Assembly: GCA_030426125.1 (NCBI GenBank)
Contig: JAUHZB010000005.1
Coordinates: 1 to 58,920, forward strand
DNA: 58,920 nt
Source: a bacterium
Lineage (GTDB): Bacteria; Patescibacteriota; Saccharimonadia; Saccharimonadales; AWTP1-31
Direction of reading: 5' to 3'
Shown here: positions 9,978-57,926 of the stretch, in pieces
How the letters are laid out: every line of letters begins with the position of its first letter
Numbering within the stretch: position 1 is the first letter of the stretch
Position numbers and translations under genes: made by a program
The notes under the pieces: generated by a model
What the model was told of the DNA's origin: nothing
Seen by the model: the letters and a program-made list of their open reading frames with translations, nothing else
The model's database searches: none

Positions 9978-10586
9978 GTGGGAAATGACTTTCAACTAAC
10001 CTTACTGATTGTAGTGCTAGGCGGTATCTTTTCGTTACTACTGGCCTTTATTTGGATTGCCGTCCGAATTGGACCGAAGGGTCGTAACCTTCGTAGTCAT
10101 AGCGGAAATAACAATGAGTTGTTTGATGAGACATACCGTCAGAAACTACAAGCTAGAGGGGTGGCTAGGTTTGAGCGAACTTTGGATCAAAACGCTACCG
10201 TACTGCAAAAAGAGTTAAGCAACGTTAGCGAAGAAGTGACGCAGTATATAAAAGACAATATTGGTCAGATTCTAGGTGATCAGCTCGATGATCAGAAACA
10301 GGTGGTTCGAGCAGCTGAAGAAAAAATGGCTCAATCTTTTAAAAACATAGATAATGCGCTAACTGATTACCAAAAAAGCATGCAAGCCGAAATGCATCAG
10401 CAACTACTCAAGCAGGTAGATAGTCGGGTGCAGTTTCTAGACCAGAATATGTCAGAGATTATCAATAGCTACATCCAGCAAACGCTAGCTAGCGAATTAG
10501 ATGTTTCCGATCAGATTAAAGGCATCGTAGCAAACCTAGAAGCCAATAAGTCTGCCATAGTTGAGGATTTAAAGCGTGAAGTCTGA
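9978..10586 (+). CDS. N-terminal TM plus long coiled-coil protein (ATP synthase b-like architecture)
   Basis: single N-terminal TM helix, Q/E/K-rich helical remainder; overlaps next gene. Confidence 0.6.
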   Translation: MGNDFQLTLLIVVLGGIFSLLLAFIWIAVRIGPKGRNLRSHSGNNNELFDETYRQKLQARGVARFERTLDQNATVLQKELSNVSEEVTQYIKDNIGQILGDQLDDQKQVVRAAEEKMAQSFKNIDNALTDYQKSMQAEMHQQLLKQVDSRVQFLDQNMSEIINSYIQQTLASELDVSDQIKGIVANLEANKSAIVEDLKREV

Positions 10587-11034
10587 TCCTTCCATAGCCC
10601 TACATATTTCGATTGTCTCCGCTCATGACCTAGGTCTAATCCAGCGAGAATTGTTCTCTATCGACTCTAATATTAAAGCTCACGGCTCCTCGGTAGTGAG
10701 TAGAATAAAACCATCTGGGCAGTTAGATAACTTAATAAAATCTAGCGGTATTGATTTAGGCGATGACCAGCAGCGCCAACTATTGAGCCAACAGTTACAG
10801 TTCGTTAGGCGAACTGCACCTAATGTAACGTTAGTATTTGCAAAACGACCCGACAGTCGATCGCTGTTGATGTTAGTTAAGTGGTTCCGAGAAAATGGTC
10901 ACCCAAATACTTTAATCAATGCGGTAACTGACCCTTCAGTCGGTGGTGGTTGCGTTGTTAAGACGGCTTCTAAGACTTTCGACTTTAGTTACCATAAGTT
11001 GTTTAGTAAGCAACCAATAAAGTTAACTAGATAA
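10576..11034 (+). CDS. ATP synthase delta/OSCP C-terminal-like protein
   Basis: VTDPSVGGGCVVKTASKTFDFS matches the delta-subunit vDpsliGGlvi...iDxS motif. Confidence 0.6.
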   Translation: MKSDPSIALHISIVSAHDLGLIQRELFSIDSNIKAHGSSVVSRIKPSGQLDNLIKSSGIDLGDDQQRQLLSQQLQFVRRTAPNVTLVFAKRPDSRSLLMLVKWFRENGHPNTLINAVTDPSVGGGCVVKTASKTFDFSYHKLFSKQPIKLTR

Positions 11035-12163: not shown

Positions 12164-12544
12164 CTAATCTTCATACATTGCTGCTAACTCACTGGAGCAG
12201 TGCCAGGTGGGTTGGTCTGCTGATTGTTGGCTAGGACCTACGCAGTCAGCACGCAGTGTATTGACCCACTCAACTAAATTTCGAATTTCATCAGCATTAT
12301 CTATGTTAACAATCTGTCTTAGCTTTTGGTGTACAACTGGGCAGTGCAAAAAACAGCTGTCGTTAGGGTCTTCTTCCTCCAACGTGAATTCATCTGTTTG
12401 GATGGTTATTGGAATGGGCTCTAGTTTTGGTTGTTGCTCCGGATCAACATTGCCAGGGTGGGTGCAGGCCTCGAAGGACCTTTCTGGACCACCAGAATTA
12501 GAAGGTCTAGGACTATCAAAATTGGCAAGTTCAAGGGTATTCAT
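12164..12544 (-). CDS. hypothetical protein
   Basis: 126 aa acidic, Cys-containing ORF; TATACT 8 nt upstream of ATG on minus strand. Confidence 0.5.
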   Translation of the reverse strand: MNTLELANFDSPRPSNSGGPERSFEACTHPGNVDPEQQPKLEPIPITIQTDEFTLEEEDPNDSCFLHCPVVHQKLRQIVNIDNADEIRNLVEWVNTLRADCVGPSQQSADQPTWHCSSELAAMYED

Positions 12545-12703
12545 AATTAACTTAGTATACTATAAAAATAGCCGATAGTCAATTTTGGGCATATTCATTG
12601 AGGGTTAACATCAGATTTGCTTATGCTATACTGATTAGTATGAGTTGGGTAGAATTAGGCACCAGTTATTTATTGGTTTTCTCAGTAAATATGGGGGTTA
12701 CCA

Positions 12704-13537
12704 GTGCCTAGATTACCTATCCCCGGTGAAGATAGTGGCACCTGGGGTGATATATTAAATGAATATCTATCTGTTTCCCATAACGCTGATGGTAGCCTAA
12801 AAAGTTCAGCTGTTTCCGACAGTGGAGCTACTGGCCCCGAAGGGCCGCAAGGTCCAGCCGGTCCACAAGGGCCAGCTGGTGATGATGGCGCAGATGGACA
12901 GGACGGCGCAGATGGTGCTCCTGGGGCTACAGGTAATGATGGCGCTGACGGCCAAAATGCCTATTTTTATACTGTTTATTCGAATTCATCTGATGGTACC
13001 GGCTTTAGTGCAACCTATTTAAACCAGACTTACATAGGAACGTTAAGTACTGATACAGTTTACAATCAGGCAGGGCTTGAGGCATTAGACAAAAGTAGCT
13101 ACCAGTGGTTGAGAATCAAAGGTGAGGATGCGCCTACCGATCATGGAGATTTGGATGGCCTAGCTGATGATGATCATACCCAGTACCACAATGATACCCG
13201 TGGGGATGCGCGCTACACACAGCGCAGTAATGACCTATCTGATTTAAACGACAATACCACTGCGCGCTCGAACTTAGGGCTTGGTTCGGCTGCAACATCA
13301 GACATAGGTGATTTTGCAACAGCTGCGCAAGGTACAACTGCTGATTCTGCTGTGCAACCTGGTGACTTATCGACTGTTGCAACTAGCGGTTCTTATGATG
13401 ATTTGGCCGATAAACCTAACCTAACCAACAACGTGCTTGGTAATGGTACTATAAACACTGTTGTAGCATTGACTCAGGCTGAGTATGATGGATTAACCCC
13501 AGATGCGAACACTTTATACATAATTACGGAGGCATAA
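12704..13537 (+). CDS. collagen-repeat, phage tail-fibre-like protein
   Basis: 15 Gly-X-Y triplets; DHGDLDGLADDDHTQY, LSDL...ARSNLGLGSAAT, VATSGSYDDLADKP and LTQAEYDGLTPDANTLYII motifs familiar from phage tail fibres; no signal peptide. Confidence 0.8.
   Translation: MPRLPIPGEDSGTWGDILNEYLSVSHNADGSLKSSAVSDSGATGPEGPQGPAGPQGPAGDDGADGQDGADGAPGATGNDGADGQNAYFYTVYSNSSDGTGFSATYLNQTYIGTLSTDTVYNQAGLEALDKSSYQWLRIKGEDAPTDHGDLDGLADDDHTQYHNDTRGDARYTQRSNDLSDLNDNTTARSNLGLGSAATSDIGDFATAAQGTTADSAVQPGDLSTVATSGSYDDLADKPNLTNNVLGNGTINTVVALTQAEYDGLTPDANTLYIITEA
12824..12958 (+). repeat. collagen-like (Gly-X-Y)15 coding repeat
   Basis: GATGPEGPQGPAGPQGPAGDDGADGQDGADGAPGATGNDGADGQN. Confidence 0.9.
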
Positions 13538-13540
13538 CAC

Positions 13541-13987
13541 GTGGCATTACCAAATACTGGAATAGTAATACCGAACATCTTCGCTGATGGGCATGATATC
13601 GATTGGGATGGCGACACTTTTAAATGCGCCTTATTCAATTCCTCATGGTCTCCAGATGTTGATTCAGTTCTTGGGTACACAACAACTAACGAAGTGACCG
13701 GTACGGGATACACAGCTGGTGGGAAAGCATTAACTAGCGTCAGTATAACTCGTAGTGGCGGGCAATTTTTATTTACCGCTGATGATGTGGAGTTTACGGG
13801 CGCAACTCTTACTGATGTAGCTGCAGCTGCTGTATATTCGGATAACGCTTCTAGCCCGGTTAGTAAACCAATAATAGCTGTTTTTAAGCTAACTGCAACT
13901 GGTGCCAATAATGGCGGGACTTTCCGTATAATTTGGTCAGATAATCCGGTGGATAACACTATCATTCATATTAGTGGAGCATCATAG
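13541..13987 (+). CDS. phage minor-tail-like structural protein
   Basis: IDWDGDTFKCAL...NEVTGTGYTAGG...FTADDVEF...GGTFRIIW pattern seen in phage tail-region proteins. Confidence 0.65.
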   Translation: MALPNTGIVIPNIFADGHDIDWDGDTFKCALFNSSWSPDVDSVLGYTTTNEVTGTGYTAGGKALTSVSITRSGGQFLFTADDVEFTGATLTDVAAAAVYSDNASSPVSKPIIAVFKLTATGANNGGTFRIIWSDNPVDNTIIHISGAS

Positions 13988-13990
13988 ACT

Positions 13991-15724
13991 ATGCCAATAA
14001 CCACTGTAACCTGTATTGAGGATGCAGATGAAAGGCAGAACGAGAGCAATTTCGTCTCATCTCGAGGATATATTGATTTACTGCAACATACTTCTACGGG
14101 TAATGCTAGAACCGGTGCTTGGCTCTTTCAGGTCCCGGATACTGTAGTCATCGATGATATCACTAACGTTGAAATGTCCTTTACGCGCGCCAATACGACT
14201 GGCACTTATGGCGATTTAACAGTGGAATCTGATGCTGATTCTTTGGCGGTTGGGCTTACAAGTAGATTTACCTCTGCTGAGTCACAAAATGGATCTGTTG
14301 CCTGGGACCCAGTTGGTGGCAGTACAGGTGATCCTGCATCTTCGGTAGATTTTGCTACTCCTTTGAAGTCAGCACTAAATAATTCAACTGCTAGCGGTGG
14401 TTACTACACAGTAGCAGTAATTTTTAAGGCAGATATTGGCGCCCCTGTGTCTCTTAGGGTAGCCGACATTGAGCATGCTACATATGATCCAGCAGATTTA
14501 GTAATAACTATTGCAGCTCCGACCAATTTTGATGCCGAACTAGATGGTGAAATTAGTACCCAAACTACTATTGATGCACTACTGATAGATGAAGACGTAG
14601 ATTATAGTGTGGTGTCAGCACTAGGTACTGGCGATGGAGCAGGAGCTCGCAAGCTTGATGTATATCCTGCCAGAAATGGGGAGCCGGGTAGTAATGGGTT
14701 TCCAGCTATAGTGTTCGCTCATGGCGGAAGATGGATAGAAGGTTCAAAAAGTCTAGGAATGACTGAAAATAATTTATCTCGGAATTTAGTAACTAAGATG
14801 ATTGATGAGGGGTATAACTTTGTATCGGTCGAGTATCGAAAAGTGCAGTCGAATATTAACCCCGGTGCAATTTTCCGCTCATTTCCGCAGAACGTCCATG
14901 ATATCTATGCATCATTAAAATGGTTCGAACTAAATTCTTCGAACTATAATGCAGATAGTACTAGGGTGGTGGTGTCTGGCTATTCAGCCGGAGGTCACTT
15001 GGCGGCCTTTGCTGGCTTAGTGGCCAATAACAGTGATTCAACTACCTATAATGGATCACAAAATGATGCAGGAGATCGGCCAGCCGGTTATGGCTATGAA
15101 GACGATGCAGATCCGTGGCAATTCGATTTCGATGAAAACGGTGAGCTGTCTTTATCTAATCCACCGATCGGTATCATGCTTTGGGATGCGCCAATAGATC
15201 TTTGGGAGGTGGCTACTATGAGTGGTGGTGCAGGAGCGGCCAACACTAATGCCCGCCGGGCCTTGATGGGCGAAACTCAACTTAATACTGTTTCTTCTAC
15301 TAAAGACGAAGCTGATATTAATCACTATATTGCTGGTGACGGTAATATCTTTAACTCTGCTCAAAATGCTGCCTCAATTCCACCAATCTTTTTTGTGTAC
15401 AGTACCAATGAAGATTTAGTTTCCAATGAAGCATCCATCGATGCTTTAGATAGCTCGCTAAACTCTATTGGCTACGATGTCTCGACTGCATCCGGGGTTT
15501 TGAATCCAAATAACGGATTAACTCGACATGGTGTAGCCCGTGATCACGCCGATGTATTGCGGGGTCAGGATGCTGATTTTCCAATGGAGATAGAGTGGTT
15601 GGCTATAGTTAGCGCCAGCTCAGGATCCACTCACTACGTTGGCACAAATACAATAGCAGCCATTCGATTAGGTTCTGCATCTGTAGGTAAAGCCTATCTA
15701 GGTGAGAATCAGATTTGGCCCTAG
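13991..15724 (+). CDS. alpha/beta hydrolase (esterase) with N-terminal beta-rich domain and phage-fibre-like C-terminal motif
   Basis: HGGRW oxyanion motif, GYSAGG nucleophile elbow; C-terminal AIRLGSASVGKAYLGENQIWP. Confidence 0.75.
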   Translation: MPITTVTCIEDADERQNESNFVSSRGYIDLLQHTSTGNARTGAWLFQVPDTVVIDDITNVEMSFTRANTTGTYGDLTVESDADSLAVGLTSRFTSAESQNGSVAWDPVGGSTGDPASSVDFATPLKSALNNSTASGGYYTVAVIFKADIGAPVSLRVADIEHATYDPADLVITIAAPTNFDAELDGEISTQTTIDALLIDEDVDYSVVSALGTGDGAGARKLDVYPARNGEPGSNGFPAIVFAHGGRWIEGSKSLGMTENNLSRNLVTKMIDEGYNFVSVEYRKVQSNINPGAIFRSFPQNVHDIYASLKWFELNSSNYNADSTRVVVSGYSAGGHLAAFAGLVANNSDSTTYNGSQNDAGDRPAGYGYEDDADPWQFDFDENGELSLSNPPIGIMLWDAPIDLWEVATMSGGAGAANTNARRALMGETQLNTVSSTKDEADINHYIAGDGNIFNSAQNAASIPPIFFVYSTNEDLVSNEASIDALDSSLNSIGYDVSTASGVLNPNNGLTRHGVARDHADVLRGQDADFPMEIEWLAIVSASSGSTHYVGTNTIAAIRLGSASVGKAYLGENQIWP

Positions 15725-15749
15725 TTTTGTTTGTTAATTTTCTAAGTTA

Positions 15750-15962
15750 TTAATTTGGGTTGTTTCTGCCACCATAGCTACTTTGACCATAACCGAGTGT
15801 CTGATTGTCCAGTTTATTGGTAGCGCCGGAGCCTAAGCTACGATTAAGGTTTTTGAGAAAAGAAGTGATTCCCAACACCGATAATAAGGTAGCTCCAGTA
15901 AGACCCAGAAATTCCGCCCTGGTTAGCTCTTTTTTTAGGAGTTGTTCTAAATTTAGCCTCAT
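15750..15962 (-). CDS. small Tat-signal-like peptide (TRAEFL + hydrophobic core + GYGQSSYGG tail)
   Basis: resembles S/T-R-R-x-F-L with second Arg replaced; lies 0.4 kb from tatC. Confidence 0.65.
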   Translation of the reverse strand: MRLNLEQLLKKELTRAEFLGLTGATLLSVLGITSFLKNLNRSLGSGATNKLDNQTLGYGQSSYGGRNNPN

Positions 15963-16032
15963 AACTTCAGTACCTAGCAAACGCTTATGATAATATATTA
16001 TTGTAAAGACATTAGCTTAATGATGCAAACTT

Positions 16033-16284
16033 ATGGATATGTTTAACATTAATACAGTAAAATCAGTTCGCTTCGCTGCCGAAGTAAATACTCGCTACGG
16101 CCAAGATGCCTACAACGCCGAGGTCTATAGTGGCAGTACTGTCAATACCCTCCCACCAAAACAGGACTATTCCGGCGATTTGTCTGCTACCGGAAATGGA
16201 ATATATATAGCGATGATTGCCGTTGGTTTACTGGTAACATCCATAATAATTAGGCGAATTCTTAAGCGCCAGGAAGCCAAGTAG
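16033..16284 (+). CDS. small protein with C-terminal sortase-like sorting signal (LSATG-TM-RRILKR)
   Basis: LxxTG, hydrophobic stretch and basic tail; YGQDAYNAEVYSG motif; no N-terminal signal. Confidence 0.65.
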   Translation: MDMFNINTVKSVRFAAEVNTRYGQDAYNAEVYSGSTVNTLPPKQDYSGDLSATGNGIYIAMIAVGLLVTSIIIRRILKRQEAK

Positions 16285-16345
16285 ATGTATGGTTTCTAGC
16301 TTGATTTCTCTACATTTATATAAATTTTAGCTATAGTCTATAGTT

Positions 16346-17110
16346 GTGAGCAGTCTAACCCACGGTCAGAAAATATCGGTCGAAGCGCATATTAACGAAC
16401 TTAGACAGAGGCTGTTGTGGTGTGTATTGGCACTAATGATCGGCGCTGGAATAGGCTATAAGTATAATCAGGAGATAATTCAATTTTTAGTTCGCCCACT
16501 TGGTCAGCAATTATTCTACACTAGTCCAACTGGTGGCTTTGACTTCTTAATCAAGATTTGTGTTTTCTTTGGCTTCTTATTAGCCATTCCAGTGGTTATA
16601 TACAATATTCTGCGCTTTATTGAGCCGTCAGTTCCAGCTCGAGTTCCATTTAAGGTTTACCGATTAGTGGTGGTATCTATTCTTTTAGCACTGGCTGGTG
16701 CCTCATTCGCTTACTTTGTTAGTTTGCCGGCTGCGCTTTACTTCCTAGACAACTTTAATAATGAACAGATATCTTCTTTAATATCGGCTCAGGAGTATTT
16801 TAATTTTGTCTTGCTATATATTGGCGGCTTTGCAGTATTGTTCCAAATGCCGCTAGTTTTTTTGTTTATTAACAAGGTAACACCGTTAAAACCATTGTCG
16901 CTGTTTAAAAAACAAAGAATTGTAATACTCGGTAGTTTTATAATTGCAGCCATTTTAACCCCAACTCCAGATCCAATAAACCAAACCATAATGGCGGTAC
17001 CGATTATTGGCTTGTACCAAGCCTCAGTGGTGGTTGTTTGGCGTGACGGTCGTAAAGGTCATAGACCTAAGCCGAAGATAAGTTCTAATTCTCGGGCCAC
17101 TAAAGAGTAG
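16346..17110 (+). CDS. tatC: Sec-independent translocase subunit TatC (divergent)
   Basis: HINELRQRL, YTSPTGGF, FQMPL, AAILTPTPDP; six TM segments. Confidence 0.93.
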   Translation: MSSLTHGQKISVEAHINELRQRLLWCVLALMIGAGIGYKYNQEIIQFLVRPLGQQLFYTSPTGGFDFLIKICVFFGFLLAIPVVIYNILRFIEPSVPARVPFKVYRLVVVSILLALAGASFAYFVSLPAALYFLDNFNNEQISSLISAQEYFNFVLLYIGGFAVLFQMPLVFLFINKVTPLKPLSLFKKQRIVILGSFIIAAILTPTPDPINQTIMAVPIIGLYQASVVVVWRDGRKGHRPKPKISSNSRATKE

Positions 17111-17175
17111 TTGCATAGCCCCAGAGTCTGGACTATACTTGAAGATGTATAAGTCTAAAGTAAGTGAGGATTAAC

Positions 17176-17361
17176 ATGTTTGGATTGGGAACCGGTGAAC
17201 TTCTACTAGTTCTATTGATACTACTATTATTATTCGGTGCAACTAAGCTACCTAAATTATCTCGTTCAATTGGCGAATCTGCCCGTGAACTTCGAAAAGG
17301 GATGAATGGCGAGCCAGAAGACAAAACTGAAGAAAAGCCAAAATCTAAGTCAAAGAAATAG
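17176..17361 (+). CDS. tatA: Sec-independent translocase subunit TatA
   Basis: MFGLGTGELLLVLLILLLLFGATKLPKLSRSIGESARELRKG; GAGGA SD. Confidence 0.93.
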   Translation: MFGLGTGELLLVLLILLLLFGATKLPKLSRSIGESARELRKGMNGEPEDKTEEKPKSKSKK

Positions 17362-17383
17362 CAGATAAAGCAACAATCTTACT

Positions 17384-17420
17384 ACTAGTCTGAATTAACT
17401 TTCAGGCTAGTTTTTATTTT
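17384..17420 (+). terminator. intrinsic terminator after tatA
   Basis: ACTAGTCTGAA/TTCAGGCTAGT stem followed by T-run. Confidence 0.75.
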
Positions 17421-17435
17421 AACCATCGTTTATGT

Positions 17436-17852
17436 TTACTCAGTTTCGCCAAGTAGTCTATCGATGTTCTGCATCTGCATTTCAACCCAGTCCGTAAACT
17501 GCGAATCATTCATCGGACCTAGGTCTGCATTACTGGGAGCAACTGCAGTTAGATCATGTACTGGTACTTCGGCATCAAGTAGCTGTTTAAACTGCAATTC
17601 GCCGGGAACATTAGCGATTACTGGTTCTTTAGTAACTTCACAGCGAACCATCAGGGCAGCAATTCCTAAGCTTTGACCGTATCTTATGAGGTCGTGCTGG
17701 TAGTTTTCTTGAGGCGGAAGTAGGTTGATCCAGGTATTGATGGTGCTATCAAACTCCTCTCCGTGTTCCGGGCAGGTAAAGTCAATTTGCCGATTTTTGA
17801 ATAGCTTGCGTAAATTCATATCTATTGCATAATTATAACATAGCTTAATCAC
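17436..17852 (-). CDS. hypothetical protein (likely start ATG 17819)
   Basis: ORF with CPEH and RCE motifs; TATAAT upstream of second Met. Confidence 0.5.
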   Translation of the reverse strand: MIKLCYNYAIDMNLRKLFKNRQIDFTCPEHGEEFDSTINTWINLLPPQENYQHDLIRYGQSLGIAALMVRCEVTKEPVIANVPGELQFKQLLDAEVPVHDLTAVAPSNADLGPMNDSQFTDWVEMQMQNIDRLLGETE

Positions 17853-17946
17853 TTTGTCGATATCAGGAAAGACTGTTTACGATAAAATAAATTAACAGAT
17901 GTAGCTGGGCTTAATTTATTGTCTGTTAACTGCTATAATCTGCTCT

Positions 17947-19866
17947 ATGACTGCAAAAGAAATTAGAAAAGAGTTTTTAAAGTTTTTCGAATCCAAACAT
18001 CACAAAGTAATTCCCCGGGCTAGTCTAGTGCCCCAGGAGGATCCAACGACTTTGTTTACTGGTTCTGGTATGCAACCGATGATTCCTTATCTGCTGGGTG
18101 AAGAATACGCTGGTGGCCATAAACGTTTAGTAGACTCCCAGCCAGTCTTTCGGGCGGTTGATGTTGAAGAGATAGGTGATAGTGAGCATTTAACCAATTT
18201 TGAAATGCTCGGTAACTGGAGTCTAGGAGATTATTTTAAGAAAGAACAAATTCCATGGATGGCTGAATTTTTATTTGACTGCATCAAATTAGATCCCCAG
18301 AAAGTTTACGTAACTTGCTACATAGGCAACGAGAAGCTAGGCATTCCCCGCGACGATGAAGCTATAGAGCTTTGGAAGACAGAGTACCAGAAAAGGGGTA
18401 TTGAGGCTAAGGTCGTAGAACTCGGGGCTGCCGAAAACGGCGATAAGCTAGGAATGCAGGGCGGGCGAATTTTCCTCTATGATGGACAAGAGAATTGGTG
18501 GTCAAGAGGTGGTGATGAAGCGGGCACTCCTATCGGTGATCCCTGTGGCCCAGACTCTGAAATGTTTTATGACTTTGGTGAGCAGTATCACGATGAAAAG
18601 CAATGGGGTAAAGCGCATCCAGCTAGCGATTCACCGCGTTTTTTTGAAATTGGCAATAACGTATTTATGGGCTACCAGAAAAAATCGGATAGCCAATTTG
18701 TGAAATTAAAAGCTCCAAACATTGATCAAGGGGCCGGACTAGAGCGTCTAGCAGCCGCCTCGCTAAATGACCCCGATGTTTACAAGACCGATCTGTTGTG
18801 GCCAATAATCGAGAAGCTAGAAAAGATTACTGGTAAAAGTTATGACCAAGAAAAGAAAGCCCACCAGGTGGTTGCTGATCATATTAAGTCAGCCTATTGG
18901 CTAGCAGTCGACGGCGTGGTACCTAGTAATACCGGACAGGGCTATGTACTAAGGCGGCTAATACGGCGGGCTCTAAGGTTTGGACATGAGCTAGGTATTA
19001 ATTCTGAGTTAGTTAAACAAATTGCCCCAGTCGTAAAAGACATATATGGAGCTGACTATCCGGAGATGGAAGCAAATTACCAGACGGTATTAGATGTACT
19101 TAATAGAGAAGAGCGGATATTCCGTCAAACTCTACGTAAAGGACTAAAAACACTAGAAAAGATGGTTGAGCAAAATAAGTCATCTAGTGGTGAATATGTT
19201 GTTAGTGGCGATAAAATATTATTCCCGATGTACGATACCTATGGCTTCCCAACTGAATTAACTCTCGAAGAAGCATATGTACGCGGTTGGAGCGTAGAGA
19301 AGAATTGGCAAGAAAAGTTTGACCGCAAGATGGCCGAACAGCGTCAACGCTCTAAAACTGCAACTAAAGGTACTTTTAAGGGTGGTCTAGGCGGTAGCAC
19401 TGAGCAGCATAAGAAATACCACACCGCTACCCATTTAATGTATCAAGCGCTAAGGGATGTGCTGGGTGATCATGTGATTCAGCGAGGCAGTAACATTACT
19501 GAAGAAAGACTGCGCTTCGATTTTAGCCATCCAGCCAAGGTTACCCCAGAAGAATTAGCTGAAGTTGAGAACATCGTGAATAACCAGATAAATCAGGATT
19601 TGGTGGTTACCTGGAAGGAGTATCCGACCGACGTGGCCGTTAACCAGAAAAAAGCACTCGGTCAATTCGGTGATCGTTATGGAGAAACTGTAAAAGTCTA
19701 TAGTATGCAAGCTGAAGATGCCGATAAGCCATTCAGCTTTGAAATATGTGGTGGACCACATGTCGATAATACCAAGAGTCTGCACCAAGATGGCAAGAAA
19801 TTTAAGATTGTAAAAGAAGAATCTAGTAGCGCTGGTATTAGGCGAATAAAAGCTAAGTTGCTGTAG
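17947..19866 (+). CDS. alaS: alanine--tRNA ligase (short form, no C-Ala domain)
   Basis: DPTTLFTGSGMQP, FEMLGNWS, GLERL, YDTYGFP, HTATH, EICGGPHV; ends just after GIRRIKA. Confidence 0.95.
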   Translation: MTAKEIRKEFLKFFESKHHKVIPRASLVPQEDPTTLFTGSGMQPMIPYLLGEEYAGGHKRLVDSQPVFRAVDVEEIGDSEHLTNFEMLGNWSLGDYFKKEQIPWMAEFLFDCIKLDPQKVYVTCYIGNEKLGIPRDDEAIELWKTEYQKRGIEAKVVELGAAENGDKLGMQGGRIFLYDGQENWWSRGGDEAGTPIGDPCGPDSEMFYDFGEQYHDEKQWGKAHPASDSPRFFEIGNNVFMGYQKKSDSQFVKLKAPNIDQGAGLERLAAASLNDPDVYKTDLLWPIIEKLEKITGKSYDQEKKAHQVVADHIKSAYWLAVDGVVPSNTGQGYVLRRLIRRALRFGHELGINSELVKQIAPVVKDIYGADYPEMEANYQTVLDVLNREERIFRQTLRKGLKTLEKMVEQNKSSSGEYVVSGDKILFPMYDTYGFPTELTLEEAYVRGWSVEKNWQEKFDRKMAEQRQRSKTATKGTFKGGLGGSTEQHKKYHTATHLMYQALRDVLGDHVIQRGSNITEERLRFDFSHPAKVTPEELAEVENIVNNQINQDLVVTWKEYPTDVAVNQKKALGQFGDRYGETVKVYSMQAEDADKPFSFEICGGPHVDNTKSLHQDGKKFKIVKEESSSAGIRRIKAKLL

Positions 19867-24907: not shown

Positions 24908-26053
24908 ATTAGTACACTAAATGAATCAACTAGCACTGATCAAGTATCACGACTAGGTGAAATTCAAACAAAAACCCGAAAGAAATTTGTAAGTCGATTC
25001 AAGGCCCGCACCCGTAAGCGGATTATTCGTTATGGGATTCTTTCGGCTAATGTCCTACTATTAGCTCTAGTAACGGGCTTTATTTTGCGTTCACCAAGTT
25101 CTGGGCCAAAAACTAATGGTCTAGCTATTCAGTCAGTTGAGAACAGCGTAGCAGACAATGCCCTAGACGAGCTGTCTTCGGCAGATATCGCCGTAAACGT
25201 GGCTAGAATTACTAACCTACCGGAGTCATTATCTGTAGTTAACCGTGCCGACTCTGTTAATGCTCAGCTGGCAGTTATCCCGGCCGATGATACTGTGGTT
25301 GCTAAACCGCAGGTAGTCACCACTGAGCTAAAATCCTACAAAGACATCGTTACTTACGTAGTTAAGAAGGGTGACACCGTGCCTAAAATTGCTGAGCAGT
25401 TTGGTATTACTTCTGATTCGGTTCGTTGGTCTAATGGAATTATTGGAAATAACGTTACCGTTGGTAAAAAGCTACAAATACCACCAGTTAACGGTATTGT
25501 ACACAGCGTAGCTTCTGGCGATACCATAGATTCTATAGCTTCTAAGTATAAAGCTAAGAAGGATCAGATAATTGCCGACAACGATTTAGACATTCGAGGG
25601 TTGGTTGTTGGGCGACAACTGTTGGTTCGAAACGGTGACGCAACTCCAGCACCTGTTGCTCCGGTAGCAACTGCTTCAAACTACGGTACTAGCTACGCTT
25701 GGGGCGGTGGCGGTGCAGTATACGGAGCAAATGGCTATGACTACGGTTACTGTACTTGGTATGCTGCCAACAAGCGAGCAGCTGCTGGTAACCCTATACC
25801 TAGTAACCTCGGAAATGCTAGCACCTGGAGAACTCTTGCTCAGCGAGCTGGATTTGCAGTTGGAAATGTTCCTCAAGCCGGAGCGGTTATTTGGACTCCA
25901 CCACGAGATTACTATGGACACGTTGGTTATGTTGAATCGGTTAACCCAGATGGTTCTGTGAATGTATCGGAAATGAACGTTGCTGGCTGGGGTGTTGTTA
26001 GCACTAAGACTTTGTCGGCTAGTGAAGCAGCTGGATACTCATATATTTACTAG
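24908..26053 (+). CDS. LysM x2 + CHAP peptidoglycan hydrolase with N-terminal TM (putative ATT start)
   Basis: YVVKKGDTVPKIA and HSVASGDTIDSIA LysM repeats; GYCTWYA...YGHVGYVE...VSEMN CHAP; frame open upstream of 25085 through a TM segment to AAGGAG-N5-ATT. Confidence 0.85.
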   Translation: MSTLNESTSTDQVSRLGEIQTKTRKKFVSRFKARTRKRIIRYGILSANVLLLALVTGFILRSPSSGPKTNGLAIQSVENSVADNALDELSSADIAVNVARITNLPESLSVVNRADSVNAQLAVIPADDTVVAKPQVVTTELKSYKDIVTYVVKKGDTVPKIAEQFGITSDSVRWSNGIIGNNVTVGKKLQIPPVNGIVHSVASGDTIDSIASKYKAKKDQIIADNDLDIRGLVVGRQLLVRNGDATPAPVAPVATASNYGTSYAWGGGGAVYGANGYDYGYCTWYAANKRAAAGNPIPSNLGNASTWRTLAQRAGFAVGNVPQAGAVIWTPPRDYYGHVGYVESVNPDGSVNVSEMNVAGWGVVSTKTLSASEAAGYSYIY

Positions 26054-36967: not shown

Positions 36968-39424
36968 ATGCCAACCAACAAACAACCTGGTATGGAGCTA
37001 GATGTTCATTTAAACAATGCAAATCTAGTCGATGGAGATATATTTAACCTACCTTCATCTTTTGGTTTTGATCAAGTCGATCCGGCTACCGATACTTTAT
37101 CGTCGGATAGAAGTTACCGTGATGTTATTTATGATGTATTGAATTTGCAAGAAGGCGATGGAATTCGGGAGCAGCTCAAGACTCGCGCCTGGCTGCTGGG
37201 CAATAAAATGGTAGACTCGGTTCGAGAAATTACTACTAATTTAGACAGAAAAGCTAAAACCAGATTGATCGGTGTAGCTATGATTGGTGTTTTATCGGTT
37301 GGCGCTACAGCAGATAGTATGACTCTTTTCGAGCAGGGTGAAGCTAGCCAAGCTAATGAATTAATTGAAGAAATAAATAGCGAACTTGTGGCTATGCCAA
37401 AGGAAATACATATTTCTTACGATGTGCCACAGTCACAACCTAGAGTCTTGGATCTAGCGGTGGCGATGGATATGGATCCAAGTGATGCTGCAAAGCAGGT
37501 CAGCGAGCAGTTAGGGGAAGGTTATAACCCAGAATCGAATATGCCAGCTGGCGAGAGTGTTGCAATTAAAACGGTTGGTACAGATTATTTCGTCAGTAAA
37601 GAAGATACAATGGCTTCATTAAGTGAACGTTTTGTTGTCCCACCAAATGTACTCCGGGCTGCAAACCCGGAGCTTCAAGCCGCTTCTGCTGATCAGAGTG
37701 TTTCTGAGGTTATGCCTAGTGTTGTGATACCAAGACCCCTACTTATTGCACAGTTACCGACCAAAATGTCATATCAGCAAGCTCAAGAGGAAACTGGCCT
37801 AACTAGCTTAATGGAAAGCGGTGAAATATCCAGTAGCCAATCGGAAGTACTTTTTGACGGTCGTCTATTGGTTGTTCCTGTTGCTGGTGATGCTGGGTTA
37901 GTTTCTATAAAGAAATCTCCGGTTTTAGTTACTTCAGAAGCCGACTCAATGCCAGCTCCAGAGAAGGCTCAACTCGCCATTTCTCCAGAAGTGCAAAGAG
38001 TCAATGAGATACTCAGTGGCATTGACCTTGGCAGCCCTACTATTGACCTAAGTGAATTAACAAGCTCAGTTATTGCTTTAGACAGGGCGTTTCGGACGAT
38101 AGATAAAGACCGAATGGCTTTAACACCCGAAGGTACTGTCAAGATGTTGTTAGCCCACGAAGCTATTGGCTTGGAAGTACCATTTACGGTTGCTGAGCGT
38201 ACTGCCGATGTAGAGCGCTACGTTTCACCTGAAGCCTATGCGGTTTTTCTGGCAACTGCCAAGTTATACCAACTTAGATTAGCAGATTTCCCTGAATTAT
38301 CTGGATCAATGCTGAGAATGCGAGATGGCAATGGTCCGGCCCATAGCACTCATAATGATGGTACTTCTTTCGATATTTCTAGTGCATTTGGTTGGGAAGT
38401 TCAGCAGTACGCTGATGGGCCTTTCGGTGATTATCAGTTTTCAGAAAGTTTTCATCGTCAATTCAACCAAGTTCTACTAACAGATATGGCGAAAATGAAA
38501 ATAGGTGGACAGAATGCAATAAAAAGAGTCTACTTTAGTGATCAGGAATTAGTGAATTCTGTAAATCAGGCCAGTGGCTATACCTTTATGAAGGATATTG
38601 ACGAGAACCATAAAGATCATTACCATGTGACCCTTAATCCGGCCTTTAGCCAACCGCAGTGGCGACCAACTATGCGCGATATGCCATGGGATGATATTCA
38701 GGATTTGAAGATCGGCGACGCTGCAAGACCAATAACATCTACTCAGCACGACGCTGAACATAAAGATTTCGAGCAGTATGTAGCAGGTATTATTGGTTCA
38801 GCAGTCAGTAGCCAAGAAGCTGCCGAGGGCACTAGGGACGAAACGACCGAAAACACTAACGATGTTGATCCGCTTGAAAGTATAGTTGATAGCCTAGATG
38901 CTACTGATTACCAGAAAGAATTTCTGCGTCTTTCGACCAGGAAGGTTATTGAAGTCTCAGCTCAGTATAATTTAAACCCCTACGCCGTTCTGGCTCAAGC
39001 AGCTATGGAAAGTGGATATGCCGAGAGTGAATTATCCGTAAAAGCCAACAACCTGTTTGGAGTAAAAATTGGCTCAAATTGGGAGGGTGATCACATTGAA
39101 CTAATGGTAGGCCCAGAGGATGAACAATATCCGGCCAAGTTTAGGGTCTACGATTCTATTGAAGAGTCCATTGAAGATTACGCAAAACTTATAGACAGTC
39201 GATCATGGTATGACGATGCTCAACTGCACAGTGACAGTATTGAATTATATCTACGTGGGTTACTTGATGAACTCAACCCTGACGGAAGCGTTGCTAAAAG
39301 ACAGGGAGAAGAAGGTGTATTAAGTTATGACTTCACTCCAGATTACGATCAGAGAGTTATTGATGTGATAAATAGTTTAAACATCATCGAGTTAGTAGAT
39401 GCTGTAACAAAGGAGAATAAATAA
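36968..39424 (+). CDS. multidomain murein hydrolase: TM, LysM-like, MepA/LAS-like Zn peptidase, GH73 glucosaminidase
   Basis: EDTMASLSERF...LRAANP; HSTHNDGTSFD...HKDHYH; AQAAMESG...ANNLFGVK...FRVYDSIEESIEDY. Confidence 0.75.
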   Translation: MPTNKQPGMELDVHLNNANLVDGDIFNLPSSFGFDQVDPATDTLSSDRSYRDVIYDVLNLQEGDGIREQLKTRAWLLGNKMVDSVREITTNLDRKAKTRLIGVAMIGVLSVGATADSMTLFEQGEASQANELIEEINSELVAMPKEIHISYDVPQSQPRVLDLAVAMDMDPSDAAKQVSEQLGEGYNPESNMPAGESVAIKTVGTDYFVSKEDTMASLSERFVVPPNVLRAANPELQAASADQSVSEVMPSVVIPRPLLIAQLPTKMSYQQAQEETGLTSLMESGEISSSQSEVLFDGRLLVVPVAGDAGLVSIKKSPVLVTSEADSMPAPEKAQLAISPEVQRVNEILSGIDLGSPTIDLSELTSSVIALDRAFRTIDKDRMALTPEGTVKMLLAHEAIGLEVPFTVAERTADVERYVSPEAYAVFLATAKLYQLRLADFPELSGSMLRMRDGNGPAHSTHNDGTSFDISSAFGWEVQQYADGPFGDYQFSESFHRQFNQVLLTDMAKMKIGGQNAIKRVYFSDQELVNSVNQASGYTFMKDIDENHKDHYHVTLNPAFSQPQWRPTMRDMPWDDIQDLKIGDAARPITSTQHDAEHKDFEQYVAGIIGSAVSSQEAAEGTRDETTENTNDVDPLESIVDSLDATDYQKEFLRLSTRKVIEVSAQYNLNPYAVLAQAAMESGYAESELSVKANNLFGVKIGSNWEGDHIELMVGPEDEQYPAKFRVYDSIEESIEDYAKLIDSRSWYDDAQLHSDSIELYLRGLLDELNPDGSVAKRQGEEGVLSYDFTPDYDQRVIDVINSLNIIELVDAVTKENK

Positions 39425-46275: not shown

Positions 46276-46647
46276 ATGCAAGTTATGAAAAGTCCTTTCG
46301 CAAGGTTTATAGTTCGTTGGTTTGTTAGCGCACTAGGTATCTGGTTAGCAGCTGGGCTACTAGGTGGCACCATAAGTTACGATGAGCGTTTAGCGGTAGT
46401 TATTATATCTGGCTTAATTCTAGCTGTTATTAACGCTATTATTAAACCAATTGTTATTATCTTGTCTCTGCCAGCCATCTTATTTAGCCTCGGATTGTTC
46501 ATGATAGTGATTAACGGCTTGATGGTTACCTTGGTTAGCTGGCTATATTCACCACTTCAAGTTACCAATTTCGGAGCAGCCATGTTAGCTGGTATGGTAA
46601 TTGGCTTGGTAAATTACCTGGTGACCACTATACTAGAGGACAGATGA
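46276..46647 (+). CDS. YvlD/4-TM phage-holin-family membrane protein
   Basis: NAIIKPIVIILSLP..FSLGLF..VING. Confidence 0.8.
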   Translation: MQVMKSPFARFIVRWFVSALGIWLAAGLLGGTISYDERLAVVIISGLILAVINAIIKPIVIILSLPAILFSLGLFMIVINGLMVTLVSWLYSPLQVTNFGAAMLAGMVIGLVNYLVTTILEDR

Positions 46648-57263: not shown

Positions 57264-57926
57264 GTGAAAAGAATATTATCAAAATTTAAACTATTATCTA
57301 CAAATCAACAATTAGCATCCTTAGGTTTGCTAACCATGTTATTAGTGGCTATCGTTGGAATAGTTTACTTAGCTTTTAGTAGTGATCCACCTCCCGTTGA
57401 AGCTACTATCACATATTCAACCGATAACCCAGATGAATCAAAGGACAATGCAGATAATTATGATTGGCGTGGAGCCTTTGATGAACCAAAGAAGATTATT
57501 ATCCCTAAAATAGAGGTAGATGCCTACGTTCAGAAAGCAGGAGTTGATCAAAATAATGAAATCGCAGTACCAAATAATGTACATTTAGCGGGTTGGTTTG
57601 CTAATGGCCAAAAACCTGGGCAGAAGGGATTAAGTATCATTGCCGGGCATGTATCTGGGGAAACAACAGATGGCGTTTTTAAAGAATTAGATCAATTAGC
57701 CGAGGGAGATAATTTTGAAGTTGAGCTAGGTAATGGTGATATAAAAAAATACAGTGTTATTAAAGTAATGCAGATTGAAGAAAGTAAATCTGAGCAAGTT
57801 CTGTTTAATCAGGAGCCTGAGGTGCTTAGTCAATTAAATCTAATAACCTGTGGTGGTGAATTTGATGATGCTAACGATCAATATAGAGATAGAGTTATTG
57901 TCTACGCGAAGCTACTAGACTATTAA
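57264..57926 (+). CDS. class F sortase
   Basis: N-terminal TM; IAGHV, GVF..L, LNLITCGG, YRDRVIVYA (His/Cys/Arg triad). Confidence 0.88.
   Translation: MKRILSKFKLLSTNQQLASLGLLTMLLVAIVGIVYLAFSSDPPPVEATITYSTDNPDESKDNADNYDWRGAFDEPKKIIIPKIEVDAYVQKAGVDQNNEIAVPNNVHLAGWFANGQKPGQKGLSIIAGHVSGETTDGVFKELDQLAEGDNFEVELGNGDIKKYSVIKVMQIEESKSEQVLFNQEPEVLSQLNLITCGGEFDDANDQYRDRVIVYAKLLDY

Follow-up and report, generated by a model that had tools for sequence, protein, structure and literature searches.

A putative split-signal Tat export module for phage-derived fibres in Saccharimonadales

Introduction

Export of signal-less folded proteins together with a signal-bearing partner through the Tat (twin-arginine translocation) pathway, or hitchhiking, is established (PMC10924467 and PMC4273604, within the accessible portions of both papers). 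In systems such as NiFe hydrogenase, formate dehydrogenase heterodimers and PaoABC, a folded enzyme subunit bearing a twin-Arg signal serves as the carrier, and its partner is fixed. Another described system, the mosaic adhesive trimer (MAT) fibres of Bdellovibrio, consists of cell-owned phage-like trimers whose tips vary and whose conserved N-terminal domain is presumed to attach to some element of the surface; these fibres have their own signal peptide and an N-domain of ~130 aa and, in the accessible part of the paper, neither a Tat link nor an identified dock (PMC10769870). Here, we describe a locus in a 58,920-nucleotide stretch of DNA (GCA_030426125.1, contig JAUHZB010000005.1, positions 1 to 58,920; hereinafter, the window) from a very small, host-dependent bacterium of the Saccharimonadales, in which a Tat-like signal, a membrane anchor and signal-less phage-like proteins are encoded by separate genes beside tatC and tatA.

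As to the ways in which Patescibacteria recognise and act on hosts, the literature that we found centres on pili. Tat in the candidate phyla radiation (CPR) is covered there by statements of presence: TatA and TatC in Saccharimonadia were reported without substrates (PMC9166423, accessible part), and tatBC with four TATFIND hits in one CPR genome (PMC6031116, accessible part). Term searches of the available text returned no CPR mention in a 2026 Tat review (PMC13673990) and no mention of Tat in PMC13278184 and 10.64898/2026.10.06.756255. Our analysis points, with a probability that we put at about 60%, to split-signal Tat export: a trans-acting signal would bind fibres carrying a short N-terminal domain (the handle) via its tyrosine-glycine (YG) tail, and a YG anchor would then catch them.

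Results

Organization and co-inheritance of the module

The window is contig C13 of genome G000 (0.9 Mb, 98% complete). Bounded by mnmA on one side and alaS on the other (Pfam scan of the window genes), the module has the GC content of the whole window. It opens with three closely spaced plus-strand genes for signal-less proteins: cargo 1, a 277-aa fibre (12704-13537) matched by PF01391, PF24243 and the handle profile; a 148-aa beta protein of phage tail-module type (13541-13987); and a 577-aa esterase (13991-15724). A minus-strand gene for the 70-aa Tat-like peptide follows (15750-15962), and then, on the plus strand, come the gene for the 83-aa anchor (16033-16284), tatC (16346-17110; PF00902, E=3e-52) and tatA (61 aa, 17176-17361; PF02416, E=2e-12). 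A terminator scan placed an intrinsic-terminator-like hairpin with an 11-bp stem and a T-run at 17384-17411 (+). An earlier note on this DNA, made from its letters alone, had likewise recognized three genes without N-terminal signals and a terminator behind tatC-tatA. Its assumption of one transcript is not supported: the 70-aa gene faces the fibre genes convergently and points away from anchor-tatC-tatA, which means that the locus does not form one operon. Promoter and terminator matches in the window equalled those in shuffles (13 versus 13.8 and 6 versus 4.8, respectively), and three RNA-labelled runs contained the stretch solely as contigs with flat depth, from which neither strand nor transcripts can be read.

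Profiles for the peptide (A1, 21 rows), the handle (A2, 11 rows) and the Tyr repeat of the anchor (A4, 28 rows) were built from the first tatC loci; all were run on the same 201 genomes of the order, and the phylum was sampled with 251 genomes. Within the order, TatC was found in 79 genomes, the peptide in 80 and the handle in 75; 71 genomes had all three and 116 had none. The handle occurred without TatC in two genomes, both of which had the peptide, and the peptide without TatC in six, one of them a weak match in a long frame. The triple-YG (YG3) profile matched 49 genomes (a count inspected in part, with a few matches in long frames): 47 had TatC, the other two were the pair with a handle and no TatC, and none was among the 116. 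Presence of all three was patchy yet matched within families (3/7 in f1, 2/8 in f4, 4/6 in f10 and 6/8 in f8). Around 30 tatC loci, the peptide lay within 1.5 kb in 22 cases, a Y3 protein in 15, the handle in 10 and none of these in six. Across the phylum, TatC scored above the cut-off in 13 genomes and the handle in nine, all nine having both TatC and the peptide; one more TatC locus with a peptide (L217) was spotted by eye, and three TatC genomes had neither peptide nor handle, one of these holding four canonical RR proteins. The module is thus real, widespread and co-inherited.

Two weak matches of the peptide profile were not accepted as peptides. That in G455 belongs to a canonical Tat precursor; that in G156, in a 628-aa frame, is nevertheless inside the count of 80.

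A free-standing Tat-like peptide and an altered TatC

The 70-aa protein runs from T-R-A-E-F-L through an h-region, a Gly and a predicted amphipathic segment to a GYGQSSYGG tail. The earlier note saw in it little more than a Tat-like signal, and the motif, h-region and tail are indeed there; the strand is minus, however, and the motif of the window copy has one Arg, not twin Arg. Among 58 aligned peptides, the cap residue (S/T/D/N) and the first Arg were present in 58/58 and the Phe was invariant, while the second-Arg position held Lys in 38, Arg in 10 and other residues in 10. The h-region has a mean hydropathy of 1.8, and the chains stop shortly past the YG tail, 34-47 aa from the Arg, with no folded passenger. 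NCBIfam model NF038009 matches the window peptide over positions 2-69 of 70 (E=7e-15, 55 bits, under the curated cut-off of 100) and all 56 peptides tested at E<=0.01, so that by E-value the window protein clearly belongs to the same family. G000 contained no further R-x-x-F-L Tat-like start, no canonical RR substrate and no TIGR01409 match. Together with the co-occurrence and the lack of a prophage, this supports what the earlier note had proposed, namely signal, cargo and anchor split into separate genes beside a dedicated TatAC. Saccharimonadales RRxF proteins with long acidic N-regions before the motif were seen at L587 (G040) and L589 (G036).

According to the accessible part of PMC13323110, in the Escherichia coli TatBC-signal structure the first Arg touches E15 and F94 and the second E103 and Y100; L9, H12, L13 and F94 form the Phe pocket. 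The window TatC keeps the equivalents of H12, E15 and F94 and has Pro and Val at Y100 and E103. In a TatC alignment of 59 rows, which includes close kin and some repeats of a single genome, the former positions were His in 57/57, Glu in 57/57 and Phe or Tyr in 58/58, whereas Glu at E103 and Tyr at Y100 were each found in 0/58, with no Glu within one position. E103 is kept in six of nine patescibacterial TatCs outside the order and in 2/2 actinobacterial ones. In family f76, where TatC has E103, the second Arg is present in 4/4 peptides, three of them with a perfect S/T-RRxFL. To judge from these alignments, the first-Arg and Phe pockets appear retained and the second-Arg contacts lost, mirrored by the variable second position of the peptide. 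Two further loci, L218 (G477) and L219 (G427), encode TatCs with E103 and divergent His/Glu positions in the first transmembrane (TM) helix; L218 adjoins handle-less phage-like genes, and L219 holds three tatA copies.

The peptide might instead be a resident TatB-like receptor subunit, its YG tail staying in the cytoplasm to recruit handle cargo to TatAC while the peptide itself is not transported. Neither an AxA site nor a lipobox was found in any of 56 peptides; the hydrophobic helix, invariant Gly and predicted amphipathic segment resemble TatA/B; net charge is greater on the C-side (+3.2) than on the N-side (+1.1); the NCBI model is named TatB_1; the window locus has no separate TatB gene; and one locus, L007, encodes a TatA-like protein with a YG tail. 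Yet TatA/TatB models (PF02416, TIGR01410, TIGR01411) do not match the peptide at E<=0.1, whereas the Tat targeting motif is present, in perfect form in three f76 peptides, and the signal model TIGR01409 matches 4/56 family members and three peptide loci. The peptide profile also matches the N-terminus of a canonical Tat precursor (L230), and the peptide often stands beside cargo genes away from tatC, duplicated along with cargo subtypes. We therefore regard a resident receptor as unlikely, although not far-fetched.

A docking pair shared with phages

The handle, MxRLPxPG..WGxILNxxL..HNxDG, spans aa 1-35 of cargo 1 (12704-12808, +) and is predicted to be a domain docking to YG repeats. The motif that the earlier note picked out (MPRLPxPG..WGxILN) is on cargo 1, the sole copy in G000, and not on genes 2 and 3. 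Elsewhere, it opens proteins of 48-1588 aa, with 1-13 copies per genome, many of them distant from tatC. A hydrophobic start was absent from 130 of 131 distinct handle proteins and weak in the remaining one, and none of the 96 complete ones had a TM helix or LxxTG. The handle profile matched 6,590 clusters at 50% identity; among the 150 matches listed, nearly all begin at residue 1. Departures from this placement have tandem or internal copies; protein P0001, for instance, has three tandem handles ahead of an enzyme-like domain. Named records with the same handle are nearly all from Saccharibacteria, and the family atlas returned no family for it.

Peptide tails fall into two types, as do handles, and the types match in 37 of 38 pairs within 3 kb, with L122 carrying both matched pairs; co-duplication alone could explain this matching. 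Phage genomes offer another line of evidence. Eight viral contigs carried a handle, and in six of them (three near-identical) the locus also encoded a YG-repeat protein. We examined 80 loci per phage set, many from few phage groups, and give these counts among the matches listed: loci chosen solely by the handle-type pattern had a triple YG in 54/80, compared with 3/80 for control tail loci chosen by the 148-aa protein, and loci chosen solely by YG3 had a handle by hidden Markov model in 10/80, compared with one for a reversed decoy. Where an N-terminal-YG3 gene was followed by downstream DNA, the next gene started with a handle-type motif in 17 of 18 phage loci, 13 of the 18 having been picked by YG3 alone. 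A string of a small beta protein, an N-terminal YG3 protein and an LP..WG..LN fibre recurs in IMG/VR phages (L304:2521-4982, L280, L296, L326, L386, L436), and a small beta protein like the 148-aa one, or comparable, often lies upstream of the YG3 and handle genes. Overall, these gene neighbourhoods suggest that the handle and the YG repeat form a fibre-docking pair with its source in phage tails.

In phage tail proteins of ~490 aa, YG3 is also found as a loop; one phage YG-loop protein matches 9nwi outside the repeat only. PDB sequence searches for the handle and Y3 repeat, for the 148-aa family and for two phage partners returned nothing relevant, and no solved structure for the docking pair.

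Anchor, handle cargo and peptide were also found together in two actinobacterial contigs of 62% GC, titled Galbitalea and Salinibacterium (L115:7554-10718 and L148:7498-9835). No tatAC lay within 16 kb, and the surrounding genes, read by eye, were of restriction-modification and mobile types. The handle was not found in 200 other genomes of the family of G223, so the system is not a native actinobacterial one.

These observations bear on a scenario in which Tat exports the peptide alone, as a membrane dock, and the fibres, having left by lysis or pilus-type secretion, attach to the YG docks on the outer side. By itself, the peptide is a plausible Tat substrate, Sec-exported YG docks exist, and the actinobacterial cassette has no tatAC of its own. 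However, an unstructured tail of 30 residues would need no Tat, docks of Sec type being available already, and Tat is kept nearly only beside handle proteins (73/79), just as the handle is found nearly only with Tat (73/75). Such a division of labour seems improbable to us.

The anchor

Relatives of the 83-aa anchor share a Y-x4-Y-x4-Y repeat and a C-terminal TM helix. Long relatives have a Sec signal ending right before the repeat, a plain TM helix and, frequently, no LxxTG, so the conserved part of the anchor is the Tyr repeat; short relatives, like the window copy, have no Sec signal and mostly retain LxxTG. In the window anchor, there is no folded passenger, and the frame is closed nine bases upstream. 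It has the features of a sortase substrate (LSATG as a variant of LPxTG, TM helix, basic tail, sortase in the genome), and G000 encodes five sortases, five Mur-ligase matches and 10 other LxxTG-TM C-termini. The earlier note, which took this gene for little more than a sorting signal, was right about its parts, the YG repeat included, and less so about its essence, given the relatives without LxxTG. We predict an outward-facing repeat, with linkage by sortase apparently optional.

One might also suppose that export proceeds by the split signal but ends with fibres set free or incorporated into a particle outside the cell, leaving the anchor to another job. The YG3 profile was found in 49 genomes versus 75 with the handle, and all cargo parts are phage-tail modules. 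The short YG3 profile is insensitive, however, the anchors, whose mature N-terminus is predicted to bear Y3, carry a TM helix or LxxTG, and no capsid, tube or terminase genes lie near the locus; release is therefore, in our opinion, very improbable.

Cargo proteins and genomic setting

Where the earlier note saw three tail fibres, only gene 1 encodes one. After the handle, cargo 1 has collagen at 41-84, fibre repeats and a C-terminal phage tail tip motif at 252-275 (PF24243). Gene 2 matches phrog_644 (E=6e-18) and has at least 548 viral relatives. Its AlphaFold2 (AF2) model, with a predicted local distance difference test score (pLDDT) of 76.6, gave middling structural matches (VIA, Z 7-9): a phage KP1 baseplate chain (Z 9.2, the alignment scattered across 500 residues), a Bxb1 tail-tip chain (Z 7.9, root-mean-square deviation 2.6, 99 aligned) and the GP4 fibre I/adaptor (Z 7.2, deviation 3.2, 111 aligned). 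Foldseek returned nothing for this model at E<=0.001, the best match being the Bxb1 tail tip (E 0.04). Gene 2 encodes a phage tail-adaptor-like protein that likely co-assembles with cargo 1.

Gene 3 encodes an alpha/beta-hydrolase (BD-FAE, E=5e-25) with visible HGG and GYSAG motifs and an acidic N-terminal region; single-sequence AF2 of its 577 aa gave an uninformative model with a pLDDT of 30. The C-terminus of the esterase bears a phage-type motif, IRLGS..V.K.YLG...IW. In L166 and in Gordonia phage Evaa (gp34/gp35), this motif also stands at the start of the gene that comes behind a tip-bearing protein. As a lead resting on three tip proteins among the stored loci, we predict this motif to be the partner of the cargo-1 tip. 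In family f1 (L024:743-1180, L025-L027), a conserved signal-less protein of 146 aa, its sequence beginning with MSYNPQNPNGQA, is encoded behind tatC, along with handle-less phage-like proteins; these are possibly further second-tier cargo.

That the fibre genes are a prophage remnant lying by chance near an ordinary tatAC is barely credible: all three cargo genes do have phage-like domains, but the flanks are mnmA and alaS at the GC of the window, the window genes yielded no match to a terminase, portal, capsid or integrase family, the sole other phage-type Pfam match there is a distant superfamily IV holin, phage proteins map to the window contig at genes 1 and 2 only, a single contig of a strain ~95% identical covers 12944-18100 without a gap and with 233 substitutions (26 of 40 listed changes at third codon positions), and, order-wide, the parts co-occur, with a handle in just 2/122 TatC-less genomes. 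The flanking prophage that the earlier note had named as a danger to its proposal was thus not seen.

On both sides of the module, there are acidic open reading frames without a Pfam match, 12164-12544 (-) and 17436-17852 (-), the latter with a sigma-70 match of 11/12 upstream. At 9978-11034 (+), a coiled-coil membrane protein with a weak OSCP/delta match (E 0.03) resembles ATP synthase b and delta; the alpha and beta subunits of G000 are encoded on contig C5. Elsewhere on the window are genes for a LysM-CHAP hydrolase (25085-26053), an 818-aa glucosaminidase (36968-39424), a superfamily IV holin-like protein (46276-46647) and a sortase (57264-57926).

Discussion

Split-signal export might proceed as follows. 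Handle-bearing fibres would fold and oligomerise in the cytoplasm; collagen is established to form trimers, and a trimer is accordingly implied for cargo 1. The double-YG tail of the peptide would bind the handle, as gene adjacency, subtype matching and the phage precedent suggest. The R-x-x-F-L motif, a pattern seen in the peptides themselves, would engage a TatC lacking second-Arg contacts, and the complex would cross via TatAC in hitchhiker fashion, to be kept at the outer face by the peptide, which would stay uncleaved. There, the triple-Tyr anchor, Sec-exported or, if short, inserted with its N-terminus out and held by its TM helix or by sortase linkage, may capture the handle. In what would be the weakest step, the handle-less 148-aa protein and the esterase would ride along via tip/partner contacts of phage type. 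The role of the module is likely host recognition or host-surface hydrolysis.

Several observations weigh against this interpretation. The profile seeds came from tatC neighbourhoods and the genomes are kin, so the counts are not independent tests, and among the 79 TatC genomes five were without a detected peptide and six without a handle. Two of 26 Saccharimonadia genomes tested, G036 and G040, each have one longer RR-type protein, and Tat may therefore not serve the module exclusively. E103A renders E. coli TatC transport-inactive (PMC13323110, accessible part), so that TatCs without E103 must compensate by some means. The f76 control is a single lineage, and the two actinobacterial peptides are single-Arg although their host TatC is canonical, which breaks the covariation. 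At L007, the TatA-like protein (859-1158, -, G034), encoded between a second tatA-tatC and a handle gene, has a C-terminal YG-x3-YG tail; it reads as a YG module naturally fused with a translocase subunit and fits a receptor that stays inside. In protein P0004, a Sec-like signal precedes handle copies in internal positions, and most of the 54 YG3-bearing phage loci look like one phage group. Finally, G000 has an F-ATPase, and COX1 was not found in its genome, so we can only infer a source of proton-motive force.

On a larger scale, it is tempting to speculate, though here we are somewhat less inclined to believe than to doubt, that Patescibacteria domesticated a phage docking pair, one module of which became a universal trans-acting export adaptor on a Tat signal and, on a membrane anchor, a dock, while TatC was re-tuned to a single client. 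Any protein gaining a handle would then leave the cell in folded form and be fastened to its surface, with enzymes linked to the fibre tips, and the portable cassette would have reached Actinobacteria, a group that includes known hosts.

With TatC in 79 of the 201 genomes sampled from the order and as many as 13 swappable fibres in one genome, our results point to a second host-interaction toolkit. If true, they would also provide a natural example of a signal peptide that acts in trans and of a TatC family that manages without E103, a residue needed in E. coli. At 35 and 70 residues, respectively, the handle and the adaptor are small and, if they work, could be used for exporting folded trimers.

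Parts of the module have known counterparts. The anchor is like sortase-anchored LPxTG proteins in its LxxTG, TM helix and basic tail, but it is an 83-aa protein without a Sec signal or folded passenger, and many of its homologues have no LxxTG. For the peptide, a Tat link is already in the family name of NF038009, 'TatB_1, twin-arginine translocation system-associated protein', which is silent on mechanism, cargo, handle and anchor; the accession was not found in the searched literature. In that literature (main texts, largely non-subscription), neither the handle nor the anchor nor any trans-acting Tat signal was found described. The phage tail cassette has a small beta protein, a YG-repeat protein and an LP..WG..LN fibre as neighbours; here, a Tat signal and a membrane anchor take the place of the virion protein as fusion partners of the YG repeat. 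The closest functional parallel is the MAT fibres of Bdellovibrio, compared with which the fibres described here are signal-less, the handle measures ~35 aa and a candidate dock gene is adjacent. Mechanistically, the module would be a variation on Tat hitchhiking, and a route for phage-derived fibres to the cell surface undescribed in the literature found. As with hitchhikers, signal-less cargo is predicted to form a complex with a Tat-signal partner. Unlike them, the carrier is a signal with a tail of ~10 residues, which would serve up to 13 handle proteins per genome, and the pair of TatC E103 and the second Arg is lost.

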